A stretch of 64,000 bases of DNA from Candidatus Nomurabacteria bacterium (GCA_023898525.1 CP060227.1:429634-493633); one strand, 5' to 3'. Positions 1,527-50,135 are shown, counted from the first letter of the stretch. The notes: generated from the sequence alone by a model not told the origin. Made by a program: numbers and translations.

Positions 1527-1561
<35 letters not shown>

Positions 1562-2128
1562 TAGAGAATCCTCACCTCCTCACTTTGCACTGAGCATATA
1601 TTTAGGGACCTTAACTGGCGATCTGGGCTGTTTCCCTTTCGACCAATGGAGCTTCTCCCCCATAGTCTAACTGCCGCGCTGTAACCTACTGGTATTCGGA
1701 GTTTGATAAGAAAAGCGAGATTTCTCCCTGTCTTTTCTTTCCAGTGCTCTACCCCCAGAGGGATCACGCGACGCCAACCCTAAAGCTGTTTCGGAGAGAA
1801 CCAGCTATTACGGAATTCGATAAGCTTTTCACTCCTTACCACAAGTCATCCGATGGTTTTGTACGGCCAACCGGTTCGGGCCTCCACGACCTTTTACAGT
1901 CGCTTCACCCTGCTCATGGCAAGCTCATCCCGCTTCGGGTCGTACCCCTGCCCTATATTCGCGCTATTAACGCTCGCTTTCACTGTGCCTACGTGGGATT
2001 ACCACTTAAACAAAGGACAAAGGTACACTCGCCGGCTCATTCTTCAATAGGCACGCCGTCACCCAAGTAAACTTGAGCTCCGACTCCTTGTAGGTGTATG
2101 GTTTCAGATCTATTTCACTCCCCTCTCC

Positions 2129-2174
<46 letters not shown>

Positions 2175-27000: not shown

Positions 27001-27205
27001 GAACCAGGTTAATTTCACCACCGCTCCCTTCTATGAAATGCAGTGGGGTTATGACATCGCCAGCGACTTGTTATTTTCTCGTCACCCTAACCTCGATCTT
27101 GATTCATACAACCGTGACATCACCGACTTCTGGTTTCAAGATGGTGGCTGGCACGGTCGAGCTGAACTTATTGGTCTAGCGTCTCCTGACTTTGTATTTG
27201 TGTAG
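24080..27205 (+). CDS. 1041-aa multidomain protein: three Calx-beta-like repeats, an M23 (LytM-type) peptidase domain, and C-terminal RTX-like Ca-binding repeats; no N-terminal signal peptide
   Basis: Calx-beta-like repeats span ~24080-25115 (ADGDYEGF, ATDHDVTF). The M23 domain spans ~25750-26150 (HYDEN ... GDTGGNWPVHLHM). GGxGxD-type repeats span ~26550-26960 (GGTGIDWFTATPGNDILYGGDGKN). Confidence 0.8.
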   Translation: MTTLTVIPDGTIREGQSAIFTIVLSEPLTESVFFRASTITSGGASTADGDYEGFTDRIYEIPAGKTSLQIAVSTYQAGTINEGVEAIGLWVDDVSPSNISITDSGVGSGRAFVTILDPVEIRVKNTNGYEGGQVGFIVEAESPVPHDTTVYLQVQGTTTAGIASNSWWVQGVIKAGQTATTVNINTVEDGQTYDTRINVKLFSYHEDVMILDDTAYGTVYNTTQVQTIPILDIFAGGDVNEGDTTVSYARLSTATDHDVTFRVSTWLGDMSGDANRNPDSPDYVSFVNRSFTIRAGQTTVPIPVQTLQNDDPTDWAQEVFSIRVEPNSVSGATLGQSRADIVIHDVAITTTPDNQNLEDLSIYKNLINTLVAKEGISKTADIIAASNTLKSAAQSLEARELLAAGVWDATGLGAIGGIETYLDYLSLFPSTLAFLIRPAYKAATGLDLFDSINYSELVNIPGAVAPSGIIFTGNQVLYEGKQIITDNDRVNWTADQALAIANGELTEILKAGDYVDGRLVIHQPVIAFDSSGNLVKHTSYQGRYDPERTSVMSGSKTDNVSHYDENAQSFDWSGNVADTVYIVAPFDGYVVYSTDTYASKEVSNGGLGNVITLRAEQKTTDGKDVFVTFAHIKQGSITSNLITTPKNPPETDTSIPVKAGQVLGIVGDTGGNWPVHLHMLAGNNTSTYGTMTAKAGLREGQVDTPPVFMLFEGAKIATRSELNSGIRERGGDFKQDIGFPIGDTDTSSGAYSEIGLSSDEPLVAKNISSTFTKGEFYEINPTFSSTDSGGQGGDFPTPDPIWNGTDTAETNEYWQDKVSAVNEFIYAGGGYDFILASGGDDVIDGQGDGGQVNLFGPGAIRANFSVTTTGDGGYRVHSIDGSFGTDKYYNIDGMWFGGYGNIPGAWHNMNDLVINTFNDGDGTLPSVADPYDELFAGTSGDDLIIGGTGIDWFTATPGNDILYGGDGKNVDQSWNQVNFTTAPFYEMQWGYDIASDLLFSRHPNLDLDSYNRDITDFWFQDGGWHGRAELIGLASPDFVFV

Positions 27206-30992: not shown

Positions 30993-32438
30993 TTATTTTT
31001 CTAGTCGACCAAACAAATTCTCAGGTTTTTTGTTTGCCAAAACAGCTTCTTTAATTATTTTACTAGTTTCAGGCATAATAGGATTTAATAATCGGCCAAC
31101 TTTATATAATTCACTTACCAAATATTTTACCATTTCTATTCCCTTCTCTTTATCAGTCTTTATTACTTTAAACGGCTCGTTAATTGCTATATATTCATCT
31201 AGTTCACCAACTTTCTTCCAAACAAAGTCGCCAACAGCCTGAAAATTAAAATTTACAAAAGCTTCTTCATATTCAGTATCAAAGCCCACTGCTTCTGGTC
31301 TTTTTACAGGTTCTTCTAGATGCGTCTCCGCCATTTTCATCACCCGAGCCACCAAGTTACCAAGGCCATTTACCAAGTTGGCGGTATACCATTCGTCCAT
31401 TTTTTCCCAAGTTACGTCTGAATCATCAAATGGATGTACGTGACGAAGTAGAATATAACGAGTAGCGTCTACACCGTAACGCTCAATCATTTCATACGGA
31501 CTAATCACATTCCCTAGCGACTTACTCATTTTTTGTCCACCGCTATTGATAAAGCCATGATAAACCACTTTATCAGTCGCTTTTACTCCCGCGCTCCTCA
31601 GCATTGCTTGCCACATTATCGACTGAAAACGTACCTGGTCTTTTCCAGCTAGCTGCAACACCTCACCCTCTGTCCAGAATTTCTTGAAATCCCCTTCTTC
31701 ATCTGGCCAACCGAGCGTAGAAATATAGTTGGTCAAAGCATCAAACCACACGTACATAACCTGGTCTTCGTCATCCGGTACCGGTACTCCCCAATTCAAA
31801 CGCTTCTTTTCGCGCGAGATACTAAAGTCTTCTAGACCATTTTTTACAAAATTAAGCGCTTCTTGGCGTCGCCACTCCGGTAGCACCACTCCCTCTTTAG
31901 ACAAATATTCTTCCAAATATTCTTGGTAGTTAGATAGTTTGAAAAAATAGTTCTCCTCCTCTATTAGTTCAGGTTCTTGGTTGTGATCAGGACATTTTCC
32001 ATCCACCAAGTCTGACTCCACCTTAAAAGACTCACATCCCACACAATAAAGTCCCGAATACTTCTTCTTATAGATATCACCTTTCTCAGCACAACGTCGC
32101 CAGATCTCTTCTGTTGCTTTTTTGTGCCCTTCATCAGTGGTACGGATAAAATTATCAAAAGAAAGATTGAGACCAGTCTCAGGGTCGGCTAATTTCCTAA
32201 ACTCATTGGCATAGTGGTCAACATAAGCCTGCCTATCCTCCCCTTTTTCATCAGCCTTTTGAGCAATCTTTTGTCCATGTTCATCGGTACCAGTATTAAA
32301 AAACACCTCATGACCAAGCAAGCGATAATATCGCGCTAGAGCATCAGCTTGTACCACTTCAAGCCCAAAACCAATATGTGGATCGGAGTTTACATACGGT
32401 AAAGTGGTGGTGATATATTTAGCTTTTTTGTCTGACAT
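30993..32438 (-). CDS. metG: Methionyl-tRNA synthetase (short form without C-terminal tRNA-binding domain)
   Basis: PYVNSDPHIGF (HIGH-type), KMSKSLGN, and a Zn knuckle (CVGCESF...CPDHN). Confidence 0.9.
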   Translation of the reverse strand: MSDKKAKYITTTLPYVNSDPHIGFGLEVVQADALARYYRLLGHEVFFNTGTDEHGQKIAQKADEKGEDRQAYVDHYANEFRKLADPETGLNLSFDNFIRTTDEGHKKATEEIWRRCAEKGDIYKKKYSGLYCVGCESFKVESDLVDGKCPDHNQEPELIEEENYFFKLSNYQEYLEEYLSKEGVVLPEWRRQEALNFVKNGLEDFSISREKKRLNWGVPVPDDEDQVMYVWFDALTNYISTLGWPDEEGDFKKFWTEGEVLQLAGKDQVRFQSIMWQAMLRSAGVKATDKVVYHGFINSGGQKMSKSLGNVISPYEMIERYGVDATRYILLRHVHPFDDSDVTWEKMDEWYTANLVNGLGNLVARVMKMAETHLEEPVKRPEAVGFDTEYEEAFVNFNFQAVGDFVWKKVGELDEYIAINEPFKVIKTDKEKGIEMVKYLVSELYKVGRLLNPIMPETSKIIKEAVLANKKPENLFGRLEK

Positions 32439-32470
32439 AGTATGGTTACTTTAGCATAGGTTTCGGTGGT

Positions 32471-32509
32471 AAAAAAGCGGACGGCGCCTGTGGCGCCGTC
32501 CGCTTTTTT
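32471..32509. terminator. Hairpin terminator (aaaaaagcggacggcgcc tgt ggcgccgtccgctttttt)
   Basis: Perfect 15-bp stem flanked by A6/T6, between glyQS and metG. Confidence 0.7.
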
Positions 32510-32528
32510 AATACAACCTATACATCTA

Positions 32529-33920
32529 TTATTTATTTAGATACTCCACCAACTCGTCGATCTTCACCCTTGTCTGCTCGCCAGTATCACGGTCGCGTAC
32601 TGTCACAGTATCCTTTAGCTCTGGTTTTTCTTCTCCTAGAGTTTCGAAGTCAATCACCACACAAGCTGGTGTGCCGATTTCATCTTGCCTACGGTAACGC
32701 TTGCCAATATTACCGTTGTCATCAAAGGCAACGTTACCGAAGCTCTTTTTTAGGTGTTTAAATACTTCTCTAGCCTTCTCAACCAACTGAGGTTTATTTT
32801 TCAAAAGCGGTGAAACCGCTACCCGATATGGTGCCAGATCTTTATGTAGTTTTAAGACCGTTCGTACATTACCATCAATTTCATCTTCATAATACGCATC
32901 TGAAATAACAGCCATAAACATTCTACCCATACCAACAGATGTTTCTAGAATCCACGGAATATACTTCTCACCTGTCTCAGGGTCAGTATAGCGAAGATCA
33001 ACTCCGGAAAACTTCATATGTTGTGTAAGATCATAATCAGTACGATCGTGAATACCTTCAAGTTCATCAAAACCAAGACCTGGAAAATTATATTCTATAT
33101 CCCAAGCATCAGACGCATAAAAAACAAGGTTGTCATGTTGTTTAAAGCGAAGATTTTCTGGCTTTATACCGATAGAAAGATACCAATCCCAACGATCTTT
33201 TTTTACTTGCTCGTAGGCTTCTTTGTTTTCATGTGGTCTAACAAACAGTTGTGTGTCTGCTTGCTCCATTTCACGAGTACGAAAAAGAAAGTTGCGTGGT
33301 GAAATTTCGTTACGAAATGCCTTACCAATTTGCACAATACCAAACGGTAGCTTTGGTGACATGGTATCGAGAATGTTTTTGTAATTTAGATAAATACCTT
33401 GACAAGCTTCCCCTGGCAAATACACGGGATTATCTCCTTTTGAAGTAAAATCTCCAAGATTTGATTTTACAAGCAAATTGAACGCACGAGCTGGTGTAAA
33501 ATTTTTCTTACCACACTTAGGACACTGGATGTTATCACGGTTAGCATCAAAAAGTTGATTGATTTCCTCTTCCGACATTTTCTCATCTGCCGTTACACCA
33601 ATGGCTCCCAGTTCTTTGTCGACTCGAATCCGTGTATTACACTCACGGCACTCAGCTAAAGGATCAGAAAAACCTGACGTATGTCCGCTAGCATCCCATA
33701 CTTTTGGATGTTTAAACATTCCTGAATCAACCCCAAAATAATTTTCTTTATCGTAGACATTTGCCTTCCACCAAGCTCGCTTCAAATTATTCAGAAGTTC
33801 AACTCCATTTGGACCATAATCAAAAACCCCAGCCAACCCCCCATAAATCTCACTTCCTTGGAATACAAACCCTCGTCGCTTTGAAAGCGCTACTATCTTC
33901 TCCATTTTGTCGTTTTTCAT
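32529..33920 (-). CDS. glyQS: Glycyl-tRNA synthetase (alpha2 dimeric class II type)
   Basis: 463 aa with class II motifs and the typical GlyRS insertion domain with Cys cluster (CRECNTR...CPKCG). Confidence 0.85.
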   Translation of the reverse strand: MKNDKMEKIVALSKRRGFVFQGSEIYGGLAGVFDYGPNGVELLNNLKRAWWKANVYDKENYFGVDSGMFKHPKVWDASGHTSGFSDPLAECRECNTRIRVDKELGAIGVTADEKMSEEEINQLFDANRDNIQCPKCGKKNFTPARAFNLLVKSNLGDFTSKGDNPVYLPGEACQGIYLNYKNILDTMSPKLPFGIVQIGKAFRNEISPRNFLFRTREMEQADTQLFVRPHENKEAYEQVKKDRWDWYLSIGIKPENLRFKQHDNLVFYASDAWDIEYNFPGLGFDELEGIHDRTDYDLTQHMKFSGVDLRYTDPETGEKYIPWILETSVGMGRMFMAVISDAYYEDEIDGNVRTVLKLHKDLAPYRVAVSPLLKNKPQLVEKAREVFKHLKKSFGNVAFDDNGNIGKRYRRQDEIGTPACVVIDFETLGEEKPELKDTVTVRDRDTGEQTRVKIDELVEYLNK

Positions 33921-33938
33921 AATCTTCAGAAATTAACA

Positions 33939-35948
33939 CTACTCTGCCTGTACTCGACCGTTACCCTCAGAAAAACCTAGTTCTTCCGAAAGATTATTGT
34001 CCAACTTAATAGCCCTAGCTTTGAGACCGACTTCGGTAAACCGATCAGTGGCCCGAAAGTCCTGAGCTTCCAGCAGTGTCAATGTTTTACCAATATGTGT
34101 CACACTTGGCAAGAGCTTGATTTGCATCTTGATTTGCTTTTGCTGATGAGCTGACATATTCCCAACCCTCCAGCTAATTTGTTTAGAAACTGGATTAAAT
34201 TCAATTTCACCATCACCACTAGTTCTCTCTGCCCAGCTTACATACTGAGGTAAAGCAGTAGTCACCACTCCGCCTGATATATCGTTAACCCCAGCAGTCG
34301 CGACTAGTGTAATAGTGTAGTCAGTTGTCTGCCCAGCCACTGGTGGGACGGGTCCACCGTCACCAAACGGACTACTAGTATGGTTTATTTCTCCGGCAAT
34401 TTGTATTTCTGAAGAATACTTAGCTTCAGCCACCGCTGTTCCAACTAGATTTTCATTGGCATTAGCTTCATTTACCCGCCTGGCAAAGACCTTCACCGAC
34501 AAATCAAACGAGCCAGTGCTCTGTCCCTTGTCCGGCTTCACGGTAAATGAAAACTTACGACTTTCTCCAGGTGGTACTTCTGTCAAAGATTTCATTCCAG
34601 CAATTTCCCAATTGATTTTTTTGGTCACTGAATCATAAAATCCGCTGGAAATATCCAAATTGTCATCGCGGATTAAGTTCCCTCGTGGCACCAACTCTAC
34701 CCGCATATCATACAAAGTCTCGTTCATAGTATTGGCTACAAGAACTTCAACATTAGCATCTGCACCAGCCGCCAACACAGCCGCTCCATCGCGATCACCA
34801 CCAATACCAACGGTCACATCTATGAAAGGATTCTCAATTGTGTACCCTACTTTAGTCTGCGTCAAAACAGAACTTAATTCAGTTTGATTATCTGATTTTG
34901 GCGTACCAGCTTTAAGCTGTATCTCAGCCGCCTCGCTAGCTAGTCCGGTGACTAAACCTTTAAAAGTAATTGTATAGACAGTGTCAGGAAGAACTTCATC
35001 TAGAAGCCAACTATTTTGACCATAGGTTGTCTGTGGTACCGCATTCAAAAAGGAGAAGCTGTTGGGATAGTCAGCGGTTATCAATACATCATGCATTGGA
35101 TTTATAGCGTTAGATAAAAGAGTCAAAGTTACTTCAAGCTCCTGTCCGGAAGAAATTTTCTCAACCGCTTCAGTCCGAATCACAATGGGAGAAGAGTTTA
35201 TTTTAACCATAACCGGTTCTGCGTTCTTGTAGAAAGTACCGTTGGAATTTTTTACCCGATATTCAATTGTTGCCTTTATTTCCTTGTCTTCATTTTCTTC
35301 ACCAAACATTATGACCTTGATTGGTTTATTAACCACTCCACCCGCTTCAATATCTTCAAGCGGCAAACGATCTTCATACAAGTCGCGATTACCTTCCTCA
35401 ACCGACTTTGTTCCTGGCGGATAATTTAGAATCAAGGTAGCTGATTCAATCGGAATGGAGTTTTGGTTGGTAATACCCACCTGAATCGGAACTGTATCGC
35501 CACCCGCCACTGAAAATGGCGCTTCAATAGAAATGCTGATATTGTTGGCTGATATTTGATTACCACCCAACAATATATAAATAGCGGAACCGATAACCGA
35601 CAGCAGCAAAACTCCCAAACTAAAAAGAAGAATGATGGTTCGGTAAGTTCGGTTTTTCTTAGGAGGAGGAACGACAACATCTTTATCATTTTGAATAATT
35701 GTATCGGAGATTTGTGAAACTATACTCTCAGACTCATTTGGTGGCAGTTGGGTCACTGGTGGATTGTCGTGTGTACTTATATTTTCTTTAGCCGGAATTT
35801 GACTTGCGACTTCACTTCCCCAACCCCGCTTAACATCGATTGATGTTTTAGTAAGATCATGCCTTTTTACACTTTTATCTTGCCAACCACGATCGTAAAG
35901 ACGCTTTCGTAGCTCGTCGATATTTTCCTGATCTTTAATTCCCGACAT
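33939..35948 (-). CDS. Large hypothetical membrane protein (cytoplasmic N-terminus, one TM, ~540-aa beta-rich extracellular region)
   Basis: 669 aa; TM TIILLFSLGVLLLSVIGSAIYILLGG. Confidence 0.5.
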   Translation of the reverse strand: MSGIKDQENIDELRKRLYDRGWQDKSVKRHDLTKTSIDVKRGWGSEVASQIPAKENISTHDNPPVTQLPPNESESIVSQISDTIIQNDKDVVVPPPKKNRTYRTIILLFSLGVLLLSVIGSAIYILLGGNQISANNISISIEAPFSVAGGDTVPIQVGITNQNSIPIESATLILNYPPGTKSVEEGNRDLYEDRLPLEDIEAGGVVNKPIKVIMFGEENEDKEIKATIEYRVKNSNGTFYKNAEPVMVKINSSPIVIRTEAVEKISSGQELEVTLTLLSNAINPMHDVLITADYPNSFSFLNAVPQTTYGQNSWLLDEVLPDTVYTITFKGLVTGLASEAAEIQLKAGTPKSDNQTELSSVLTQTKVGYTIENPFIDVTVGIGGDRDGAAVLAAGADANVEVLVANTMNETLYDMRVELVPRGNLIRDDNLDISSGFYDSVTKKINWEIAGMKSLTEVPPGESRKFSFTVKPDKGQSTGSFDLSVKVFARRVNEANANENLVGTAVAEAKYSSEIQIAGEINHTSSPFGDGGPVPPVAGQTTDYTITLVATAGVNDISGGVVTTALPQYVSWAERTSGDGEIEFNPVSKQISWRVGNMSAHQQKQIKMQIKLLPSVTHIGKTLTLLEAQDFRATDRFTEVGLKARAIKLDNNLSEELGFSEGNGRVQAE

Positions 35949-35982
35949 GGTTACCAGCCATTATATCATTATCAAACAGTAA

Positions 35983-36561
35983 TTAGAGGTGGCTATTCGC
36001 AACTGCGTTGTCTATTAGTTTCTTCATTTTTTCAGCTGACAACTCAGATTCATATTCAGCCAAGGTACTGGCCGGGGCCACCTTGAAGTTTTTGGGAATA
36101 TCTTTTGAATCAACATAGCCAAGCTCGTCCAAAATCCTTAATTGCACCGCCAATTCCAGAAAGCTGCGCTTTTGACACTCACTAATCAAAAGACGCGAGG
36201 CACCAACACAGAAGTCAAAAAGTAAAGAGTGCGCCTCCTCACCATGGACAAACCGCCTTAAGGTCTTCATAAGCATGACCACACTACCACGAGCCTCACG
36301 ACTCTTAGCTGTAGCAAAATAGTTTGGCCCTGGAACAACACTACCGATTCGCCAACCTTGCTTACCTTTCACTAAAGAGACTCTGATTTGAGAAAACTCT
36401 TGCAAGGCCGGCCGCTGCTTCGACCGCTCTTCGCGCACACTACGGGCAGTAGCATAGAGCATGCCTGCCTCACGGGTAAAAAGCACAAATACCTTATCAG
36501 CGGTATTGTGCAAAAAACTACCGCAAACTATCGCCTCTGTGATGTAGGTTTGGTATGACAT
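35983..36561 (-). CDS. recO: DNA repair protein RecO-like
   Basis: N-terminal OB-fold pattern (TEAIVCGSF...VFVLFTREAGMLYATARSVRE), 192 aa; abuts ileS. Confidence 0.5.
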   Translation of the reverse strand: MSYQTYITEAIVCGSFLHNTADKVFVLFTREAGMLYATARSVREERSKQRPALQEFSQIRVSLVKGKQGWRIGSVVPGPNYFATAKSREARGSVVMLMKTLRRFVHGEEAHSLLFDFCVGASRLLISECQKRSFLELAVQLRILDELGYVDSKDIPKNFKVAPASTLAEYESELSAEKMKKLIDNAVANSHL

Positions 36562-39500
36562 TAAACCTTAACAATAGAAATTAGGTATGAATTATCACCA
36601 ATTTGGATTTCTTTTCCTTTGGTTGTGGTAAATGTGATTTCTTTCGCTCCAACCACTTTCTTGATTATATCTAGCTGTGCTTTTACCATCTCCTCACCAG
36701 CTGGTGATGTGGCTATGGTCAGAGTAATTACGTCCTGGGGCTTGAGACCAGACTCTTTACGCATATCCTGTATAACCCTAATCAATTCACGCGCCTCTCC
36801 CTCCTGTTTCAATTCGGTAGTAATATTAGTGTCGAGTACCACTACTTCAGACTGAGTTTCGTTGACTGTAACCGTCTTTACATTAACCTCGTCTGCAATC
36901 ACACTTAATAACTCTGAATCAACCGGTTTAGAGACCGACAAAGACGACAGTGGTTGTCGTACCTTTATTCCAGATCGTGTGCGCTGCTCCAAAGCCAAGG
37001 TCACTAATTCACGGGTAGTCCTCATACAATCAAGTAAAACTTCATTAACAGACCCGGTCTCTGGCCACTTAGCCAAGTGCACGCTCTCTGCCTCACTTTC
37101 ATCTCGCACTGCTCGGTATAGATATTCAGCGTAGAAAGGCATGGCCGGTGCCATTACCTTGGCTAATTCACGAAGGACATAGCGCAAGGTACCAAGCGCT
37201 AGCTTCTTGTCTTCCACATCCTCACCCTTGAGACGGTCACGTGAGCGGCGGAGATACCACACGGACAAATCATCAATAAAATCAGTAATTGGTCGCACGG
37301 CTTTATCGAGCTCATAAGCTTTGTAACCAGCAGTTGATTCGGCGATCAGTTGATTGAGGCGCGCCACGATCCAGCGATCTAAAACATTATTGGAATCGTG
37401 GCGCGGTTCGGAAGCCCCCCGGGCTTCCTCACCACCATCCGCAAACATTTCATACATCGCCAGTACATTATGAAGTCGTCCGATATTCTTCCGTTGTATT
37501 TCAAGCACGTCTTTTTCGGCGAAGCTCAAATCTTCACTATGCACTACCGGCGAAGACAAAAGATAATACCGCATCGAGTCTGCCCCCAAGCGACCCACGA
37601 GCTCCATCGGATCAGGATAGTTCTGCAATGACTTACTCATTTTCTTTCCATCCTCCGCCAAAACCAATCCGTTTACAATCACATTCTCATACGGCGACTT
37701 ACCAAAAAGCGCCACCCCTAAGACGAGCATGGAGTAAAACCACCCCCGAGTCTGATCTAGACCCTCAGCAATAAACTGCGCCGGGAAACGCTCTGCCTCG
37801 AACTTTTCCTTATTTTCAAACGGATAATGAAGCTGCCCATACGGCACCGACCCACTCTCAAACCAACAGTCAAAGACATCCGGCACTCGCTTTAATTCCT
37901 CCCCGTCTTCATACAACTTAATATCGTCGATATATGGTCGATGATAATCGAGTTCGTAGCTGTCGTTATGAGGAAATGGCACAAACGGCAAAGCTCTGAG
38001 CTCTGCGTTATTTAAGTCGTAGGTATTTTCCTCAATAATCTTTCCTAAAGTTTCAAAATCATCACCTTTGGCGACCGCTTGCAACATCTGCAAAGTCCCG
38101 TTATGAGAAACAAACAAAACATTCTTATCCTTATGCTTTGTTTCAATTTCATTCAACAATTCACCCGCTCGTCTTTTCACATCCGTCCAGTTTTCTCCTC
38201 CTTCTGGAGTTTTGGTCAAACGATCAGTTCCAGTCGTAAAAAAAGCGTGATATTCACTTACAGTCTTGCCATCAAATTCACCAAACCGTACTTCAAGCAA
38301 ACGTTCGTCCGCCACTAAAACCTCCTTAGACAAACCTAGTCCTTCCGCTACTTTCTCTGCCGTTTCTTTCGTGCGTTGTAGTGGAGAATAATAAATAAGA
38401 TCAATCTTTTCGGCTTTTAGTTTTTCTACCAACTCACTTACCTGCTCTTTACCTTTATCAGTAATACCATTCTCAACCGCCACATCCACATTTAAAGTCT
38501 CTTTGGTATTCAAAGCTGATTCAGCGTGACGGGTAATAAAGTATTTATTGCCACTTTTGGGCACAAATTCCTGCATCTCAGCCATGCTACCGAACACCTT
38601 ATATTCACCAGTCTTTTCATTTTTCCAGATCGGCAGTGGCGCACCCCAATAACGCTGCCTAGACACCGCCCAGTCGCGTGCCCCTTCCAGCCACTTGCCA
38701 AAGCGGTTTTGTCCGACATAATCCGGCACCCACTTCACTTTATTATTGGCGGCCACCAACTCATCTCTCATGTCAGTTACTTTCACAAACCACGATGTAG
38801 TCGCGTAATTTAAAAGCGGTGTGCTGTCGCGCCAACAATGCGGGTAACTGTGAGTGATATTTTCTTTCTTGAAAATCTTTCCAGCTGTTTGTAGGTGACG
38901 CAAGACTTCAATATCCGCATCCAAGTGCGACACCCGAGCTTCATCGTCATCTTTTGGCTTCACTAATTGCCCAGCAAAGTCAGTCACAAAATCCATAAAC
39001 CGCCCACCATAATCAACATGGTGTGCGATAGGAATATTATTTTCCTTAGCTACATTCATATCGTCCTCACCATAAGCCGGCGCCAAATGCACGACCCCAG
39101 TCCCCTCCTCACCAATTTCGACAAAATCCGCGTGGTAAATCTTCCAAGCTTTTTTTTCTTTTTCTTTCTCCTCATTAAAATCATCTATTCTTTTTGGGCC
39201 TCTAGGTGTTGCCCATAAATTTTCAAAGTAATTGAACGGTGGCTCGTATGACAGATCTAGCAAGTCTGAACCTTTCATTTCCTCTACCACCTCATAAGGC
39301 AAATCACCCAATTGAGCCAATCGACCTTTGGCTAAAATTACATTCTCGTATTTAATTTCCTTTTTTATTTCTCCATCAGCACCCACTCTGTCAGGAATAG
39401 TTGAGTTTAGAACAGAAACCTTCACATAATCCAACTCTTGATTGACCGCAATTGCCATATTACCTGGCAAAGTCCACGGGGTCGTCGTCCAAATCAAGAT

Positions 39501-40226
39501 ACTGGTATCAGTCTTATTACCGTTTTCATCCAGTAGTGGCATTTTGACCGTCACCGCGATATCCTTCACATCCTTATAACCTTGATTCACCTCAAAGTTA
39601 GACAAAGTCGTCCCACAGCGTGGACAAAGATGCATACTCTTAAATCCTTCATACACCAGCCCCTTTTCATGGAGTTGCTTAAATACCCACCACACACTTT
39701 CGGTGTAGTTTGAGTCCATGGTCTTGTAATCATTTTCCATGTCGACAAACCGACCAAGGCGCGGGATAATCTGTCGCCAATCATCCGCATACTCCAAGAC
39801 CGCCTCCCTAGCGGCTTCATTAAAATTCTTGATACCGTAGTCCTCGATATCTTTTTTGTTGGCTAGGCCAAGTTTTTTCTCAATCAAGTTCTCCAGGGGC
39901 AAACCATGACAATCCCAACCCCACTGCCGCCTTACGCGGTAGCCATTCATCGTCCAAAAACGCGGGATTGCATCTTTTATAGTGCCCGGCACTATATGAC
40001 CATAATGTGGCAAGCCAGTTGCAAACGGCGGTCCATCATAAAAAATATAATCTCCTTTAGGACTCTCTCCCGCCGGCTTCTCTACACTTTTATTAAAAAT
40101 ATCATTCTCCTCCCAAAAAGCCTGTACCTCTTCCTCCCGCAAAGCTACCTCAGACTTCTCTACTTCTTTCACCACCTCAACTGAATCGTTCTCACGACCG
40201 TGTACTTTTTTATCTTTCATATTCAA
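36561..40226 (-). CDS. ileS: Isoleucyl-tRNA synthetase with an embedded histidine-phosphatase (PGAM-like) domain (~170 aa insertion at 38037-38555)
   Basis: HYGH (LPHYGHIVPG) and KMSKSLQN class I motifs. Between the PIW block and HRPYIDD lies ITRHAES...SPLQRTKETA...VSHNGTL, matching histidine phosphatase signatures. Confidence 0.85.
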   Translation of the reverse strand: MNMKDKKVHGRENDSVEVVKEVEKSEVALREEEVQAFWEENDIFNKSVEKPAGESPKGDYIFYDGPPFATGLPHYGHIVPGTIKDAIPRFWTMNGYRVRRQWGWDCHGLPLENLIEKKLGLANKKDIEDYGIKNFNEAAREAVLEYADDWRQIIPRLGRFVDMENDYKTMDSNYTESVWWVFKQLHEKGLVYEGFKSMHLCPRCGTTLSNFEVNQGYKDVKDIAVTVKMPLLDENGNKTDTSILIWTTTPWTLPGNMAIAVNQELDYVKVSVLNSTIPDRVGADGEIKKEIKYENVILAKGRLAQLGDLPYEVVEEMKGSDLLDLSYEPPFNYFENLWATPRGPKRIDDFNEEKEKEKKAWKIYHADFVEIGEEGTGVVHLAPAYGEDDMNVAKENNIPIAHHVDYGGRFMDFVTDFAGQLVKPKDDDEARVSHLDADIEVLRHLQTAGKIFKKENITHSYPHCWRDSTPLLNYATTSWFVKVTDMRDELVAANNKVKWVPDYVGQNRFGKWLEGARDWAVSRQRYWGAPLPIWKNEKTGEYKVFGSMAEMQEFVPKSGNKYFITRHAESALNTKETLNVDVAVENGITDKGKEQVSELVEKLKAEKIDLIYYSPLQRTKETAEKVAEGLGLSKEVLVADERLLEVRFGEFDGKTVSEYHAFFTTGTDRLTKTPEGGENWTDVKRRAGELLNEIETKHKDKNVLFVSHNGTLQMLQAVAKGDDFETLGKIIEENTYDLNNAELRALPFVPFPHNDSYELDYHRPYIDDIKLYEDGEELKRVPDVFDCWFESGSVPYGQLHYPFENKEKFEAERFPAQFIAEGLDQTRGWFYSMLVLGVALFGKSPYENVIVNGLVLAEDGKKMSKSLQNYPDPMELVGRLGADSMRYYLLSSPVVHSEDLSFAEKDVLEIQRKNIGRLHNVLAMYEMFADGGEEARGASEPRHDSNNVLDRWIVARLNQLIAESTAGYKAYELDKAVRPITDFIDDLSVWYLRRSRDRLKGEDVEDKKLALGTLRYVLRELAKVMAPAMPFYAEYLYRAVRDESEAESVHLAKWPETGSVNEVLLDCMRTTRELVTLALEQRTRSGIKVRQPLSSLSVSKPVDSELLSVIADEVNVKTVTVNETQSEVVVLDTNITTELKQEGEARELIRVIQDMRKESGLKPQDVITLTIATSPAGEEMVKAQLDIIKKVVGAKEITFTTTKGKEIQIGDNSYLISIVKV

Positions 40227-40273
40227 ATTAGTTTTTATGTATATCAGACATATTACTTATTGAAGATTAAACC

Positions 40274-40358
40274 AAAGTAAAGAAAATAAAGGAGGTGCGA
40301 CCTTAAAGAGGAGCGATGAGCGACGAGAAAGGTCGTTCCTCAGTTATTTTCTTTACAA
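40274..40358. repeat. Long imperfect palindrome with conserved loop ttaaagaggagcgatgagcgacgagaaa; flanked by 18-bp direct repeats atgtATATCAGACATatt (40237-40255) and atgtGTATCAGACATgtt (40396-40413)
   Basis: Arms gtaaagaaaataaaggaggtgcgacc and ggtcgttcctcagttattttctttac. The loop is near-identical to the loop of the element at 50149-50218. Confidence 0.6.
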
Positions 40359-40547
40359 ATTAATAAGCTCAAATTTCAATAAATACTTAATAAACATGTG
40401 TATCAGACATGTTTTTACATACTATCATGAGTGGTGATTTTGGCTAGCCAAAAATATTGACATAAAAATATTTCTATTATATAAAAAAGGAGAAGTGTAC
40501 TTAAACAAAAACTTTCTAACACATTAAATCTATGTAAGGGAGAAAAA

Positions 40548-41126
40548 ATGGACATAGTAAATGATTGGTTTGATGCAAAAAATATCTTAACCTTAACAGG
40601 AGCAATAACCTCAGAAAAAACTAGCAACTTAGCCAGCAAAATGCTGGAGTTTCAAATTAAATCTGAATTAAAAGAAACTACAACAGAACCATTAGTATTA
40701 CTTATAAACAGTGGTGGTGGCGATATCATTTCAGCTTTAAAACTTTGTGACGTAATTAAATATGTTATTAAAAAACCTGTCAAAGGTATCGTAGTTGGCA
40801 GTTGTCATTCTGCAGCTACTTTGATTTTGCTGAGCTGTGAAATCAAAGTATGTCTACCTTATTCAGATTTTTTACTTCATTCCAACAGCGTAGCAAGAGT
40901 TACCGCCAGTACAGAAGAAGAATTAAGTCAACTACGAGAAGATTTGATTCTTACACGCAAAACCATTCTTTCGTATTACGAAAAAACCCTGAAGCTTAAT
41001 GTTGTTGAAATTGAAAAGTTGATGAATAAAGGAGATCAGACCTTTAATCGCTATATTTCACCCACAGAGGCGCTAAGTATAGGATTTATTGATGTAATTC
41101 AGCATGAAAACATCAATATATTTTGA
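40548..41126 (+). CDS. ClpP-family serine peptidase-like protein (orphan, divergent)
   Basis: INSGGGD (oxyanion region) and GSCHSAATLIL resemble ClpP/TepA-like folds; 192 aa, no adjacent clpX. Confidence 0.55.
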   Translation: MDIVNDWFDAKNILTLTGAITSEKTSNLASKMLEFQIKSELKETTTEPLVLLINSGGGDIISALKLCDVIKYVIKKPVKGIVVGSCHSAATLILLSCEIKVCLPYSDFLLHSNSVARVTASTEEELSQLREDLILTRKTILSYYEKTLKLNVVEIEKLMNKGDQTFNRYISPTEALSIGFIDVIQHENINIF

Positions 41127-41478
41127 TCAAGGTTATAAAAATATAACACCCCACCAAAACATCGGTGGGGTTGTTTTTATTTTAAGACAAGTAAACAAAG
41201 TGGTTATGCTCAGAAAATTTTTTGGGAATAAAATTGGTATTTTAGATTTACTTGGCGACTACATATTCATTTTCTCCCTTGTAGGTCGAAAATTTCATTG
41301 TGTCTGCCTAAGTAAAACATAGTGGTTGTGCTCCGAAAAATTCCGAAGGAAAGGAATTTTTTCGGAGAAAATTCGCAATAGTTAAGTAAAATTAAGGAGT
41401 GTAACGACTATAATTTACTTATGTCAGAATTTGTTCTGCCCTTGGGCAAATTCTGACCGCTATGCTCGTTTGCTCATT

Positions 41479-43181
41479 TTACATTCTCTCCGGGGCTTTG
41501 ATACCCAAGACCCAAAGACCGTTTTTGAGAGTAGTTTTTACCGCTTTAGCTAAAGCGATCTTGTACGGAGCATGCTCGTCGGTCGTGTCAGCAATTTTTT
41601 CTTTGCCGTAGAAAGAGTTGAATTCACCAGCTAGTTCGGTCAAATACCCCACTACTTTATGCGGCGCTCGCTCTTGTAGCGCTATCTCAATCACTTCTGG
41701 GAATTGGTAAATAATTCGCTCAACTTGATACGGAGTATCAGGTGCATTAGCGATATTTTCTGCCAAGCCAGCCGTTTCAGCTTTTTCCAAGACACTTGCA
41801 ATACGCGCGTGTGTGTATTGCAAGTACGGACCAGAATCCCCTTCAAAAGACAGAGCTTTTTCTTTATCAAAAATTGAGTCCTGCAAAATACTTCCTCGCA
41901 AAGTACTGTATTTAATAGCCGCGATAGCAACGTCTTTAGCTAGCTCTCCATTTGGCTCAGTTTTTCCTTCGGCTATTTTTGCCAAAGCAGTTTCTGTTAC
42001 ATCATCAATAAAATCATTGGCCGCTATCACATCTCCAGTCCGAGAAGACATTTTTCCAGTCGTTAGGCGTACCATCCCATGCCCTATATGCTCAGTCTTT
42101 TCAGCTAAGTCTGGATAAATAAAACTTAGAGCTTTTTTCAAAACCTTGAAATATTCATTTATCTCATTGGCAGTACTAACCACCGATAGATCATATTCAC
42201 CTAGTCGATCTTCCTTAAGTTTTGCTAAGGCCAATTCTTTGGCTTCATAAGTCGGCAAACCTTCTTTATTTAAAAACACCCGAGTGTGAAGACCGTGATC
42301 TTCACCTCTAAAGATTCTCGCCCCATCACTTTCGGGAAATATTTCAGGGTGAGATACTACAATCTCCTTCCCTAACGGACCGGTTTCGCTTTCAAAAAAA
42401 TAACTATCGAACTTAGTACCTAAAGTCTGGTAAATAGTTTCAAAATACTCTAGAGACACACGTCGTCCAGCGTCATATAACTTATTTATTTCTTCATCAG
42501 ACCGTTCGTAGACTTTTTTATTGATATCACGAATTTCTGCTTGAGCTGTCTCATCTTCCTTATATGCGGTTGCCCCGAGAGCATAAGCCTGACCAAGCTC
42601 GCGAGCCGAAAATTCTTGATCTCTATCAATACCAATTTTCTTCATTCCCCAGATGGCGTTGGCTACATGAAGTCCAACATCCCCTTGGTAGTTCACACAC
42701 TTGGTGTCAGCCCCGTTCATCATAAATAAACGAGCAATACTTTCACCTACCGCATTGGTAAACATATGTCCAATATGAAATTCTTTAAAAGGGTTGGGGT
42801 CAGTGTATTCCACTAGCACCTTCTTACCAGCCCATGAATCACTCTTCCCCCACTCTTCCGGTGAGTTATTGATACGAGCGATTTCCGCTGTGAAAAAATC
42901 GCGACTTAAATAGAAGTTTAGAAAACCAGGACCAGCGATCTCGATTCGGTCGACGTACTCGATTTGACCTTCGAGCGCCGCGGGGAAATGGGCCCCCAAA
43001 TTCCGCGCGGCGCTTTCCCCACCTGCTTCGCCACCACCATCGCCACATTACAAGCATAGTCACCATGGGTCATATCAGCCGGATGCTCCACCACAAAATC
43101 AGCTGAGTCCAACCCCAGCCCATTTAAAACATCATCAATAGCCACTTCAATTACTCCTTTCATAAACCACAGAATACCCAA
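41479..43181 (-). CDS. argS: Arginyl-tRNA synthetase, interrupted by a 1-nt frameshift in a T-run near 42999-43005
   Basis: N-terminal domain is in ORF 42918..43181 (MKGVIEVAIDDVLNGLG...HGDYACNVAMVVAKQ). Catalytic and anticodon-binding domains are in ORF 41479..42999 (IEIAGPGFLNF, HIGH-type FHIGHMF, C-terminal LGIKAPERM). The two frames join if tttt replaces ttt in ggaatttggggg. Confidence 0.8.
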
Positions 43182-46862: not shown

Positions 46863-47828
46863 TTAATCCCCCTCAATCTTATGATCTACTCCCCCTACCA
46901 CTGCCATTTGAGCTTTTATCGGAGGATGTGACTCATAATTATTTAGTGTCACATGTTCTGGTCTGAAATCATCTAAAGAAGTCATCTCATCACTAAGGAT
47001 AACAGTTGGGAATTTCATCGGCTCACGAGACATTTGTTCTTTAGCCTGTTCTTTGTGATTTTCATAAATGTGCACATCACCAAAAGTATGAATAAACTCC
47101 CCTGGTTCATAACCAGTAATCTTCGCTAAAAGCATAGTCAAAAGTGAGTAACTAGCGATATTAAAAGGCACTCCAAGGAAGATGTCGGCTGAACGCTGGT
47201 AAAGCTGCAGACAAAGTCGACCGTTTTTTATATTCACCTGATACATATTGTGACAAATCGGAAACTGACTAGCCTCGCTTGGCTTAGCCATGCTATACAA
47301 ATATTCAGGATTCCAACTATTTACCAAGGTATTGTGAGCATGTGGATCTTTCTTGATTTCGTCTACCACCCACTGCAATTGATCAATTCCTCGACCGTCT
47401 TTGGTTGGCCATTTGCGCCACATTTCACCGTATATGCGCGGTAGCTCCCCATGCTTGGTCGCATACTCATCATCAGTCGCAATCTTTTCAATAAATTCTT
47501 CTTTAGTCATTTCCGGCCAACCTTCTTTTTCACGCTTGTTGTTGTAGATACGGAAAGGATAATCGTCCCAAATATGCACGTTATTATCTACCAAATACTT
47601 TATATTGGTCTGCCCAGACATAAACCAATACAGTTCATGCAACACTCCTTTCCAGTAAACTTTCTTAGTGGTCAAAAGTGGTAAACCTTCGCTGAGGTCG
47701 AAGCGCAGCTGCCGACCAAACAAACTATGAGTTACATCTCCTGTCATTAAATCTTCTTGCCGATCACCTTTTTCTAAAAGCTCCTGCATTAAATCTAAGT
47801 ATTGGTATTCTGGATGTTTGTTTGACAT
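46863..47828 (-). CDS. thyA: Thymidylate synthase (ThyA, long form with insertion)
   Basis: PICHNMYQVNIKNGRLCLQLYQRSADIFLGVPFNIASYSLL matches the ThyA active-site region. Confidence 0.9.
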   Translation of the reverse strand: MSNKHPEYQYLDLMQELLEKGDRQEDLMTGDVTHSLFGRQLRFDLSEGLPLLTTKKVYWKGVLHELYWFMSGQTNIKYLVDNNVHIWDDYPFRIYNNKREKEGWPEMTKEEFIEKIATDDEYATKHGELPRIYGEMWRKWPTKDGRGIDQLQWVVDEIKKDPHAHNTLVNSWNPEYLYSMAKPSEASQFPICHNMYQVNIKNGRLCLQLYQRSADIFLGVPFNIASYSLLTMLLAKITGYEPGEFIHTFGDVHIYENHKEQAKEQMSREPMKFPTVILSDEMTSLDDFRPEHVTLNNYESHPPIKAQMAVVGGVDHKIEGD

Positions 47829-47834
47829 GATTTT

Positions 47835-48308
47835 TTAATTATTATTGTTAAAGTAATCCTTCAATTTAGTAGCGAACTCTGCTCTAGAAACTGGGTCTGA
47901 CGAAAAGCTTTGTTTATGTAGTGAATACAAATCATCTCCTTCATATCTTGGAAAGACATGTAGATGATAGTGCCACACCTCTTGGTTTCCAGCTGGTTCG
48001 TTATGCTGCCGAATACTAACACCGTCACATTTATAAAGTTCCTTCATAGCAATAGCTACCTTTTTGGAAAAAATATGAATTTTAGCTAATAGATTATCTG
48101 GTATATCGTAAATATTCTCATAATCTGTGTTTGGAATAATAATTACATTACCAGGATTGTTTGGCCATTGCTTAGAAGAAATAAAAGCTGAAATATCGTT
48201 ATCTTGATAAAAAATGTCCTCCTTATTGGTATGGATGCTATCAAAATTTCCGTTATCTATAATAGCTTGAAAAGGATTTTTGTATTCTGCGGATTTATGG
48301 CTGTACAT
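47835..48308 (-). CDS. HIT-family nucleotide hydrolase (start at MYSHKS)
   Basis: Histidine triad HYHLHVFPR. The longer ORF upstream of MYSHKS lacks homology and would overlap dcd. Confidence 0.75.
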   Translation of the reverse strand: MYSHKSAEYKNPFQAIIDNGNFDSIHTNKEDIFYQDNDISAFISSKQWPNNPGNVIIIPNTDYENIYDIPDNLLAKIHIFSKKVAIAMKELYKCDGVSIRQHNEPAGNQEVWHYHLHVFPRYEGDDLYSLHKQSFSSDPVSRAEFATKLKDYFNNNN

Positions 48309-48318
48309 TTTTTTATAA

Positions 48319-48864
48319 TTACTTCTTCGGCTCTGCGAAGTGGTTTGAATTCTCGCTGTCATAGCGCCCAACATCTTCGTAAGACTTGCTAGTTGGAGAG
48401 GAAAGCTTGGCAAACAATAACTGCGCGATCTGCATCCCCGGACGAAGAATGATCGGAATATTGCTGGCATTCACGAGCTCAAAGGTCGGGTAGAATTTGT
48501 GTCCCGGATTAAAAAGCATAGCGGTGTTGTGCACCACCAGCCCAATCCGTGCCAAGCTACTTTTACCGGAAAGCAAGATCAAGTGCTCATTGTCGACCCC
48601 AATAAACTCCCGTTGCTTCCCTAGCACATTCTCTCCCGGATGAAGTACAAACTCATCATCATCCTCGATACGAAACTTACGGGTAGAAGGATAAACCTTC
48701 CTGGCCGGATCAGACGCTTGTACCAAATGTCTATCGACTACTTCAAACTCATTACCTAAAGTCACATCGTAGCTAGCGAGCTGCAACTGTTCTTCACGAA
48801 AAGGCTCGATAATAAGCGCCCCCCTTTTTACCCCATTCATGATGTCGACGTCAGACAAAAACAT
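48319..48864 (-). CDS. dcd: dCTP deaminase
   Basis: 181 aa, dUTPase-fold Dcd pattern (MFLSDVDIMNGVKRGALIIEPF..., LSGKSSLARIGL). Confidence 0.85.
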   Translation of the reverse strand: MFLSDVDIMNGVKRGALIIEPFREEQLQLASYDVTLGNEFEVVDRHLVQASDPARKVYPSTRKFRIEDDDEFVLHPGENVLGKQREFIGVDNEHLILLSGKSSLARIGLVVHNTAMLFNPGHKFYPTFELVNASNIPIILRPGMQIAQLLFAKLSSPTSKSYEDVGRYDSENSNHFAEPKK

Positions 48865-48867
48865 ATT

Positions 48868-49542
48868 TTATTTAACAACAAAAGTCTTATCGGTGCCGTA
48901 ATAATCCGTCCAGTTTTCATTATAAAAAGCAAACATACGCGCCAGACGATCCTGCGATAATTCTTCTACTTCTAATTCGGCCATCAATTTCTCCAGATTA
49001 GCTCGTACCTGATCAAGACCAGACTCATCGTCGGTGACCGTTTCAAATTCAGCCAAGTAACCATAACCAGCGTTTTTATCTAAACAAACATTGATATCTT
49101 TATAAGCATACTCTACCCGCTCCCTAGACCACTTGGCCTCATATTCATAGCCAACCGAAAGAATCAGAGCATCGAGTTCAAGTAGCGACAAAGCCACCGT
49201 TTCTTCAAATTCCAACCTGGAGACAGTGTTGCTACTACTACCACCGTCAACAGCAGCCTTCACAACCAAAAGTACCTGATCATCTTTTTGTCTAGTACGA
49301 ACCGAAAAGTCAGTACCCCGCTCGGCAATCATTTTGAACTTATCGTGTTGATCATCAATAAAAAGATGCTCTACTTTGTCATAGAGGTCATGAATGTCCC
49401 CGCCGATAAAATAATGATTGAGCTGTTTATTTTCGCCAATTACCTTCAAATCCGGATCTAGCTTTCGCATTTTTTCGACTAAATTATCAGCTTGCTCTTT
49501 TTCTCCCAAGAGACTTTTAATTTCAATTTCAAAGTTGGCCAT
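48868..49542 (-). CDS. CYTH-domain protein (triphosphate tunnel metalloenzyme)
   Basis: N-terminal EIEIK motif and alternating acidic beta-strand pattern typical of CYTH. Confidence 0.65.
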   Translation of the reverse strand: MANFEIEIKSLLGEKEQADNLVEKMRKLDPDLKVIGENKQLNHYFIGGDIHDLYDKVEHLFIDDQHDKFKMIAERGTDFSVRTRQKDDQVLLVVKAAVDGGSSSNTVSRLEFEETVALSLLELDALILSVGYEYEAKWSRERVEYAYKDINVCLDKNAGYGYLAEFETVTDDESGLDQVRANLEKLMAELEVEELSQDRLARMFAFYNENWTDYYGTDKTFVVK

Positions 49543-49619
49543 AGTCTAAGCATTATAGCAGACTGATTTTGCTAAAAAATCACGACAGTATTTGAAATCT
49601 ATGCCATAATCAGTGCACT

Positions 49620-50135
49620 ATGAAAAAACCAAACGTACCGGTAGTAATAGTAGCCGCCATGAGCCGAAAAAACCGAGTGGTTGGTAAGGAAAATAAGCTA
49701 CTTTGGCACGTACCGGAAGATCTAAAACACTTTAAATCCCTTACCCTTGGTCACCCCGTTATTATGGGTCGCAAGACCTTTGAATCGATTGTTCAGATAC
49801 TTGGTAAGCCTCTACCCGGTCGCACCAACATAATAGTCACCAGAAATTCTGACTATCAGCATGAAGGTGTAAAAACTGCGACATCTTTAGAAAAAGCTTT
49901 TACCATTGCCCAAGAAGAAAACCCGACCGAAATCCACATCGGTGGCGGTGAAGAAATTTGGCGACTATCTTTTCCTTACGTAGACCGACTTCACTTAACT
50001 TTTTTTGATGATGAACCGGAAGGCGACGCCTACTTCCCCGACTTTACCCAAGATTTTGTTGAAATAAAGAAACACCCTCCGCAAGAATACGGAGAGCTTA
50101 GATACCAGTGGGTAGATTTTAAGAGAAAACCTTAA
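49620..50135 (+). CDS. folA: Dihydrofolate reductase
   Basis: VVIVAAMSRKNRVVGKENKLLWHVPEDLKHFKSLTLGHPVIMGRKTFESI is the canonical DHFR N-terminal region. Confidence 0.9.
   Translation: MKKPNVPVVIVAAMSRKNRVVGKENKLLWHVPEDLKHFKSLTLGHPVIMGRKTFESIVQILGKPLPGRTNIIVTRNSDYQHEGVKTATSLEKAFTIAQEENPTEIHIGGGEEIWRLSFPYVDRLHLTFFDDEPEGDAYFPDFTQDFVEIKKHPPQEYGELRYQWVDFKRKP

Follow-up and report, generated by a model that had tools for sequence, protein, structure and literature searches.

We analysed a 64,000-nt stretch of the genome of a Candidatus Nomurabacteria bacterium (GCA_023898525.1, CP060227.1:429634-493633; hereafter the window, with positions counted from its first letter), in which the gene for isoleucyl-tRNA synthetase (IleRS), ileS, carries a histidine-phosphatase domain nested within the catalytic core of the enzyme. 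The gene occupies positions 36561-40226 on the minus strand as one continuous open reading frame (ORF), and the plus-strand translation of the same interval is riddled with stops. The original prediction, made from the sequence alone, had the coordinates and continuity of this ORF right and left its strand unstated. Counted from a TTG codon at 40226, as all residue numbers given here are, the ORF comprises 1,221 codons followed by a stop at 36563-36561. The likely start is the ATG at 40220 (third codon), which gives a product of 1,219 aa; this product is 100% identical to the deposited protein P0001, named 'MAG: class I tRNA ligase family protein [Candidatus Nomurabacteria bacterium]' and encoded on a 1.09-Mb contig. 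The gene and the parts of its product are as follows, CP3 standing for connective peptide 3:

36561-40226, minus strand: ileS, type-2 IleRS with nested phosphatase (Pfam, TIGR00392, identity to P0001)
39996-40007, minus strand: HIGH signature of the synthetic site (HYGH, residues 74-77; motif)
38625-38648, minus strand: WGAPLPIW block, residues 527-534, final core strand ahead of CP3; invariant in homologues
37971-38564, minus strand: inserted histidine-phosphatase domain, residues 555-752, in the CP3 loop (Pfam PF00300, AlphaFold, Foldseek, limits of free-standing homologues)
38523-38531, minus strand: RHA motif (R566, H567, A568), with H567 the predicted phospho-accepting nucleophile; R and H invariant in 120/120 homologues
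38508-38510, minus strand: N573, phosphate-pocket Asn; invariant in 120/120
38373-38375, minus strand: R618 (SPLQR), second phosphate-binding Arg; invariant in 120/120
38292-38294, minus strand: E645, predicted general acid/base; invariant in 120/120, and E or more rarely D in distant copies
38103-38105, minus strand: H708 (VSHNG), second catalytic His; invariant in 120/120
37923-37943, minus strand: HRPYIDD block, residues 762-768, where the IleRS core restarts, preceded by the conserved junction PHNDxYELD (homologue conservation)
37629-37643, minus strand: KMSKS signature, residues 862-866 (motif)
36945-37379, minus strand: anticodon-binding domain, residues 950-1094 (Pfam Anticodon_1)
36564-36887, minus strand: type-2 C-terminal domain, residues 1114-1221 (Pfam DUF5915)

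The NCBIfam equivalog model for IleRS, TIGR00392, scored 872.3 bits against a cut-off of 621.4, bearing out the predicted identity of the gene. Its match falls into two pieces around the insert, as does the match to the Pfam class I catalytic domain, tRNA-synt_1. Both motifs of the connective peptide 1 (CP1) editing domain, the Thr-rich TTTPWT and GTGxVHxAPxxGxxD, are present; in the translation they read WTTTPWTLPGN and GTGVVHLAPAYGEDD, and they are invariant among homologues. By Pfam, the C-terminal architecture is that of type-2 enzymes, with Anticodon_1 followed by the ARD-type DUF5915 and without the C-terminal Zn-binding domain. The best structural matches of the full-length AlphaFold model were type-2 IleRS, and the window protein shares with the enzymes of Priestia megaterium (IleRS2, 8C8V), Thermus thermophilus (1ILE) and yeast (8WND) the fold, the domain order, HIGH and KMSKS, CP1 editing and the type-2 C-terminal domain. 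Because the HIGH, KMSKS and editing motifs and the anticodon-binding and type-2 C-terminal domains are all present, the IleRS portion looks functional and is predicted to charge tRNA-Ile. The models for the mupirocin-resistant MupA and MupB (NF000257 and NF000258) scored 643 and 659 bits against a cut-off of 1900, which reflects generic type-2 similarity only. The family ileS_w_GNAT (NF040702) likewise joins an IleRS to an extra catalytic domain, but the domain and its position are different; its model scored 327 bits against a cut-off of 1999, and no acetyltransferase match was found in the window protein by Pfam.

The nested domain and its catalytic residues

The distance between the RxRxWGxPxP and HRPxID blocks is 239 residues in the window IleRS versus 36-43 residues in insert-less IleRS from the candidate phyla radiation (CPR), in keeping with the ~40 aa originally given as the normal spacing of WGAPLPIW and HRPYIDD; between these two blocks themselves the window protein has a spacing of 235 residues. 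Insert-less CPR enzymes have a short hairpin here, often a CxxC...CxC zinc knuckle. In the window protein the extra sequence forms a single block of 198 aa (residues ~555-752), and the hairpin after WGAPLPIW and everything from HRPYIDD onward are both retained. The ~170-aa segment of the original prediction corresponds to the Pfam domain within this block (His_Phos_1, PF00300; residues 563-731, 169 aa; E=1.3e-32; 113.5 bits against a threshold of 21.7; profile positions 2-170 of 194), but the insert as a whole is longer and measures 194-204 aa across the 120 best homologues of the window IleRS, which are 62-74% identical to it overall. The insertion region is the CP3 subdomain, which bears a Zn motif in T. 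thermophilus IleRS (PMC7191050, structures of Candida and Thermus IleRS). Whereas solved IleRS and the non-CPR IleRS listed in our genome scan (below) have a loop of 36-43 residues at this point, the window IleRS has a 198-aa enzyme domain and has lost the Zn ligands, all four Cys of the CP3 motif being absent. Deeper-branching insert-bearing IleRS retain the CxxC...CxC cysteines on both sides of the insert; the insert therefore occupies the knuckle loop and is not a replacement of the knuckle.

Folded alone by AlphaFold from an alignment of free-standing relatives, the insert reached a local confidence (pLDDT) of 92 and a predicted template-modelling score (pTM) of 0.89, and within the full-length model it is the best-resolved part (pLDDT 85-95). 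Foldseek matched it with probability 1.00 and template-modelling (TM) scores of 0.69-0.78 to PspA (4IJ5, TM 0.77), GpgP, PhoE, CobC and phosphoglycerate mutases of the dPGM type; its neighbours include a riboflavin-pathway phosphatase (HFP) and the mycobacterial glucosyl-3-phosphoglycerate phosphatase (GpgP). The closest sequences in the PDB were PhoE (1EBB/1H2E, E=4e-15) and PspA (4IJ5, E=3e-14). PhoE of Geobacillus stearothermophilus and PspA of Hydrogenobacter thermophilus resemble the insert in size (~190-210 aa), in catalytic residues and in having no dPGM-type tail, but they are free-standing metabolic enzymes with 24-29% identity to it (structural TM 0.69-0.77). The insert is a complete PhoE/PspA-like branch-1 histidine phosphatase that is nested in a CP3 surface loop and folds as an independent domain. 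Profile and fold searches thus back the PGAM-type identity first read from its motifs, and the isolated model agrees with independent folding.

All three signatures noticed in the original prediction are present: RHAES...N from residue 566, SPLQRTKETA from residue 614 and VSHNGTL from residue 706. The replacement of RHG by RHA had also been seen correctly, and it is a common minority variant, the third residue being G in 77 and A in 43 of the 120 homologues. The catalytic His said to be kept (H567) is invariant in all 120, together with the rest of the catalytic set. Mean pairwise identity among these homologues is 47% for the insert and 76-79% for the two halves of the catalytic core. The set is also kept in nearly all of ~160 domain copies from 150 representatives (at 50% identity), multi-copy proteins included, and the exceptions are incomplete sequences or E-to-D changes. 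Because the catalytic residues are invariant while the remainder of the domain drifts, the insert is probably a catalytically competent phosphohydrolase.

The best NCBIfam match of the insert, NF038349 (dPGM_arch, the short archaeal type), reached 82.1 bits against a cut-off of 225. GpmB (NF002901) scored 31 against 261 bits, and other dPGM-type models were far below their cut-offs or not among the matches listed; the insert, at ~190 aa, is without the dPGM C-terminal tail. The alpha-ribazole phosphatase CobC (TIGR03162) scored 77.8 against 162.9 bits, and PspA-type phosphoserine phosphatase (NF045917) 73.4 against 350 bits, although PspA is the best structural neighbour. Anti-phage defence models of PADLOC gave 0 families for the insert at E<=0.01. 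A second His_Phos copy was sought in the six-frame translation of the 64-kb window and none was found.

Distribution of the domain and its link to ileS

PF00300 is present in 120/120 best homologues. Those insert-bearing homologues that carry a name come from Nomurabacteria, Paceibacteria/Paceibacterota, Pacebacteria and the 'Patescibacteria group'; one of the 120 (P0076) is labelled 'Candidatus Azotimanducaceae bacterium'. Searching 1.84 billion cluster representatives with the insert alone returned 1,051 proteins at E<=1e-10, and among the best 150 of these, 95 are full-length or fragmentary IleRS with the domain at the same place and 55 are without IleRS flank. A pattern scan of species-representative genomes listed 75 type-2 IleRS loci, a small and possibly unrepresentative sample. 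Insert-positive loci in this sample are from CPR only, with 2 Saccharibacteria, 1 'Patescibacteria group' and 4 Peribacteria, and three of the four peribacterial enzymes contain two tandem copies. In the same sample the insert is absent from Doudnabacteria, from another Saccharibacterium and another Patescibacterium, and from the type-2 IleRS of ~60 non-CPR bacteria and archaea. Restricted to CPR, the insert is widespread there but patchy, and it is neither peculiar to the window genome nor general for type-2 IleRS. The same insertion is found clade-wide in related CPR ileS genes (Paceibacteria, some Saccharibacteria, Peribacteria), and the possibility that it is common to all type-2 IleRS, which would have spoken against the original prediction, does not hold, as ~60 non-CPR and several CPR enzymes listed lack it.

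P0159, a match of 189 aa without IleRS flank (626-kb contig), is the founding member of a family of >120 free-standing CPR proteins that their sources name 'histidine phosphatase family protein' or 'PhoE'. They start MKLNNKYY(I/L)LRHGEA and finish GELRELN, and the limits of the insert are identical (SGNKYFITRHAES ... NAELRALP). In each of the six genomic contexts fetched, argS and ileS lie on either side of the free-standing gene and on its strand. Four of the six have gaps of 1-25 nt or a 7-nt gene overlap, and the other two (L078, L081) have one extra gene in between. The ileS of these split loci is insert-less (818-965 aa as called) and, where read, its loop is a short Zn knuckle (...ELGIDEKFDLHRPYID... 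in L080, for instance). Downstream follow recO and a large surface protein, in L076 also a class II aminoacyl-tRNA synthetase (aaRS), and the order in the window is the same; across the loci compared, argS and recO often adjoin ileS. A metagenome scan with the free-standing family yielded 80 loci most similar to the window insert, a set that is hence biased towards its close relatives. In 69 of them the domain is inside ileS, in 10 it lies within 150 nt upstream of ileS and in 1 it is one gene away, so that linkage to ileS held in 80/80 best loci at 35-47% identity.

Inserted here and adjacent there, the phosphatase shows the classical fusion/fission ('Rosetta-stone') pattern. It belongs to a CPR-specific subfamily that is physically tied to ileS, and it is apparently translationally coupled to ileS where it forms a separate gene immediately upstream. 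In neighbour-joining trees, which carry no support values, the inserted, adjacent and absent states are interleaved, non-CPR sequences are nested among CPR sequences, and the free-standing family forms one cluster nested among the inserts. As a simple route to the split form, we infer that an insert-bearing ileS could have been duplicated in tandem and the two copies then reduced by reciprocal deletions, which would place the free gene directly upstream of ileS. In two split-form loci (L138, 3487-4854; L081, 5814-6806) the free-standing phosphatase is separated from ileS by an unannotated gene of ~245-330 aa that matches no family. A CYTH triphosphatase was considered as a recurrent neighbour and dropped, as it occurs only in L078 and L079 (between the phosphatase and ileS) and, ~9 kb off, in the window.

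The domain also occurs at other sites, in other copy numbers and with other partners:

P0236, P0251: 1419-aa IleRS holding two copies, one in CP3 and one at the junction leading into the anticodon-binding domain (one six-member cluster, contigs up to 1.06 Mb)
P0265: IleRS with the insert moved to directly after the HRPYID block
L003, L004, L005: peribacterial IleRS with tandem copies
P0122: ValRS fragment with four copies
P0402: ValRS fragment with a single copy placed elsewhere, ahead of the WWGHxIP block (relatives named Gracilibacteria or Peregrinibacteria)
P0213: TsaC (threonylcarbamoyl-AMP synthase) with the domain C-terminal; junction SGNKYFLMRHAEA, nearly identical to that of the window
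P0259: ATP sulfurylase with the domain N-terminal (3-member cluster, contigs up to 114 kb)

In a neighbour-joining domain tree (again without support values) the domains of the TsaC and ATP-sulfurylase fusions nest within the CPR subfamily. Paceibacteria ValRS is without the phosphatase domain. We rejected the domain as a general class Ia feature, since the ValRS cases are rare fragments and the Paceibacteria enzyme lacks it. A further ValRS gene with His_Phos segments (L084, 5498-9317) falls into four called genes in different frames, and a single frame read with genetic code 25 gave no continuous ORF; this gene is a pseudogene or else was frameshifted in assembly. One related IleRS (P0202, JGI, 11-kb contig) combines the His_Phos insert with a C-terminal GNAT domain and, within its N-terminal half, a nested Y1_Tnp domain. 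It seems that CPR IleRS are a hot spot at which domains are acquired.

Neighbouring genes in the window

Two genes flanking ileS belong to the arrangement compared above:

35983-36561, minus strand: recO-like gene, member of the conserved argS-ileS-recO synteny
41479-42999, minus strand: argS (ArgRS); in split-form relatives the free phosphatase gene lies between argS and ileS

The ATG of recO overlaps the stop codon of ileS (36559-36563, TAATG), which suggests translational coupling of the two. Four aaRS genes lie within 12 kb (30993-42999), encoding a short MetRS (481 aa), a class II enzyme (32529-33920), IleRS and ArgRS; interspersed among them are recO, a gene for a 669-aa surface protein and, running the other way, a ClpP-like gene. 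The ClpP-like gene (40548-41126) fills the argS-ileS gap where relatives carry the free phosphatase gene.

The window has 41% G+C and begins within a bacterial 23S rRNA gene. The rRNA match (1-2760, minus strand) covers model positions 1-2075 over 2760 nt, leaving ~700 nt in excess; CPR are known for large insertions in their rRNA. IS200-like Y1 transposases are encoded twice, at 6470-6931 and 10383-11135, both on the minus strand. A 399-aa protein encoded at 5061-6260 (minus strand) matches the MATCAP/DUF1704 carboxypeptidase family, and the sole family match of a 1041-aa protein encoded at 24080-27205 (plus strand) is an RTX calcium-binding repeat near its C-terminus. A nucleotide-metabolism cluster at 46863-50135 comprises genes for thymidylate synthase, a HIT-domain protein (47835-48470), a dCTP-deaminase-like protein (48319-48864), a CYTH triphosphate-tunnel protein (48868-49542) and DHFR. 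The dCTP-deaminase-like and HIT ORFs overlap by ~150 nt, and one start is probably miscalled. The small subunit of ribonucleotide reductase (61308-62621, minus strand) carries an N-terminal ATP-cone, normally found on the large subunit, whose gene adjoins at 59602-61278.

Possible roles of the phosphatase

Class Ia synthetases offer a precedent for a hydrolytic domain nested in the same Rossmann fold, namely the CP1 editing domain, and the insert would bring the number of active sites to three. CP1, which hydrolyses mis-acylated tRNA, is found in all IleRS, ValRS and LeuRS, whereas the insert is lineage-restricted, sits in CP3 and is a predicted phosphoryl-transfer enzyme. Branch-1 histidine phosphatases are also joined to a second enzyme in the RNase H/acid phosphatase of the Rv2228c type (NF005567) and in PFK-2/FBPase-2, but there the fusion is end-to-end and the partners are others; NF005567 matches the insert region at 78 bits, below its cut-off of 326. 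No dedicated NCBIfam model for a His_Phos-bearing IleRS was among the matches listed. A full-text literature search on aaRS, PGAM and CPR/Patescibacteria found no published description of an IleRS with a histidine-phosphatase insert, and a 2026 preprint on the domain architectures of 96,219 IleRS makes no mention of phosphatase or CPR. The architecture is visible in precomputed Pfam annotations of public proteins and its component families are textbook; the combination is undescribed as far as searched.

Our preferred reading, to which we give a probability of about 0.4, is that the phosphatase removes inorganic pyrophosphate (PPi) or a nucleotide that is a by-product or inhibitor of adenylate formation. 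The insert would be an active phosphohydrolase serving the synthetase, and would remove a phosphorylated by-product or inhibitor of ATP-dependent activation close to the activation site. PPi would be the first candidate substrate and an adenine nucleotide (pAp, AMP or an alarmone) the second, and local removal of the by-product would pull or protect the formation of isoleucyl adenylate. The four independently acquired partners (IleRS, ValRS, TsaC, ATP sulfurylase) each attack the alpha-phosphate of ATP, transferring its adenylyl group with release of PPi, and it is for this reason that PPi or a nucleotide comes into view. Nucleotide or alarmone hydrolysis had been suggested in the original prediction, beside a regulatory module, and is compatible with these findings. 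The variable copy number (1-4) and insertion site argue for a need of local dose or proximity rather than for a precisely docked macromolecular substrate. Phosphoanhydride hydrolysis is known among histidine phosphatases, as in E. coli AppA and the phosphatase domains of Vip1/Asp1.

Several points weigh against PPi or nucleotide removal. The nearest solved relatives of the insert, by sequence and by structure, are small-molecule phosphomonoesterases of ~200 aa and not pyrophosphatases. PPi is released by every aaRS, but the domain accompanies IleRS in the overwhelming majority of cases, a specificity that PPi removal alone does not explain; the linkage to IleRS could be historical, going back to one ancient insertion that was then inherited. 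An inorganic pyrophosphatase has been reported in Peregrinibacteria (PMC4736985), and since some CPR encode such an enzyme, a tethered one might be redundant; within the 64-kb window we found neither a ppa nor a phosphoglycerate mutase (PGM) gene. The other partners are also thinly represented: TsaC is fused to the domain in just one sequence (3.7-kb contig), ATP sulfurylase in a cluster of 3 members, and the ValRS examples are fragments. The full-length AlphaFold model (pTM 0.55), with its poorly resolved core, gives no inter-domain geometry.

The partners could also direct attention to tRNA, with the phosphatase dephosphorylating tRNA 3' ends. Three of the four are tRNA-related (IleRS, ValRS, and TsaC through t6A synthesis), the catalytic domain on which it is placed belongs to an A76-binding enzyme, and the NCBIfam matches include NF005567, another case of His_Phos fused to an enzyme acting on nucleic acid. 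TsaC itself, however, is not known to bind tRNA, and the ATP-sulfurylase fusion would go unexplained. The nearest relatives of the insert all act on small molecules, variable sites and one to four copies would be odd for reaching one defined RNA end, and by PADLOC the insert is without defence or toxin family matches. CP3 is moreover not reported as a tRNA contact in the papers on IleRS structures consulted (e.g. PMC7191050), and we regard a tRNA-directed activity as unlikely. A housekeeping enzyme that hitch-hikes on ileS, such as a phosphoglycerate mutase or phosphoserine phosphatase, seems to us improbable to the same degree. Here one ancient insertion would have left the ileS linkage as a frozen accident, and tandem duplication with reciprocal deletion would place the gene beside ileS without functional cause. 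The best NCBIfam match, to dPGM (NF038349), followed by CobC and PspA, fits this, as do the top structural match to a phosphoserine phosphatase and a report that PGM is undetectable by hidden Markov model search in several shallow Parcubacteria clades (Jaffe et al. 2020, PMC7304191). Those family scores are nonetheless far below their cut-offs (82 vs 225, 78 vs 163, 73 vs 350), a generic metabolic enzyme would not be expected to be acquired repeatedly and independently, at second and third IleRS sites as well as by ValRS, by TsaC and by ATP sulfurylase, and ileS linkage persists in all 80 best loci despite 35-47% identity.

Regulation is a poorer candidate again. The domain might sense or turn over a phosphorylated signal (an alarmone or glycolytic intermediate), or dephosphorylate IleRS or another protein, and so tune the charging of tRNA-Ile to the state of the cell. 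Its superfamily includes protein or phospho-His phosphatases (SixA, PGAM5, Sts), and with its short, conserved linkers and the conserved junction PHNDxYELD the insert may dock onto the core in a fixed way that could transmit conformational change. Many genomes nevertheless have the separately translated split version, multi-copy and multi-site variants are hard to square with a specific allosteric relay, the conserved neighbourhood is without a kinase partner, and SixA is not among the family matches of the window protein. An inactive filler, a pseudoenzyme merely substituting for the CP3 zinc knuckle, would suit the absence of the four motif Cys seen in T. thermophilus IleRS (PMC7191050). It is very improbable, given catalytic residues that stay invariant although the domain drifts to 47% identity, deeper-branching insert-bearing IleRS that keep the CxxC...CxC knuckle around the insert, and the existence of a free-standing form. 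An assembly or gene-calling artefact, through a chimeric contig or a read-through fusion, has next to no likelihood, as the frame is continuous, the junctions on either side of the insert are conserved, and the same architecture recurs in hundreds of independent assemblies (NCBI, JGI, ENA, Logan), contigs of 0.6-1.09 Mb included. The original judgement that this is a genuine domain insertion and no fusion artefact stands, with the insert in 120/120 closest homologues, 95 of 150 representatives and 69 of 80 metagenome loci.

PPi or nucleotide removal could also be one form of a wider idea, which we consider doubtful, that the phosphatase, whether inserted, multiplied in tandem or detached as an operon partner, is an unrecognised, CPR-wide third catalytic module of class Ia aaRS, integral to tRNA-Ile charging through PPi or nucleotide hydrolysis in cis or through tRNA 3'-end repair. 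Synthetases are among the most conserved enzymes, and nested new catalytic domains are rare in them and usually signal new biology, as with editing domains and the appended domains of eukaryotes. Retention of the phosphatase in or beside IleRS across deeply divergent CPR, together with its duplication within IleRS and its renewed acquisition by ValRS, TsaC and ATP sulfurylase, implies that a phosphate-hydrolysing step is important for ATP-dependent activation or tRNA-Ile handling in minimal, host-dependent cells. The split form, with its separate phosphatase and insert-less IleRS, is a ready experimental system. If a function were found, the 'PhoE-like' CPR proteins, a large family, would gain a role, and it would become clear why annotation pipelines label these genes no more precisely than 'class I tRNA ligase family protein'; a metabolic constraint peculiar to CPR, for example in PPi or nucleotide homeostasis, might also come to light. 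Should the phosphatase prove to be a third module of this kind, it would establish a new principle for how accessory functions serve aaRS in ultra-small bacteria.

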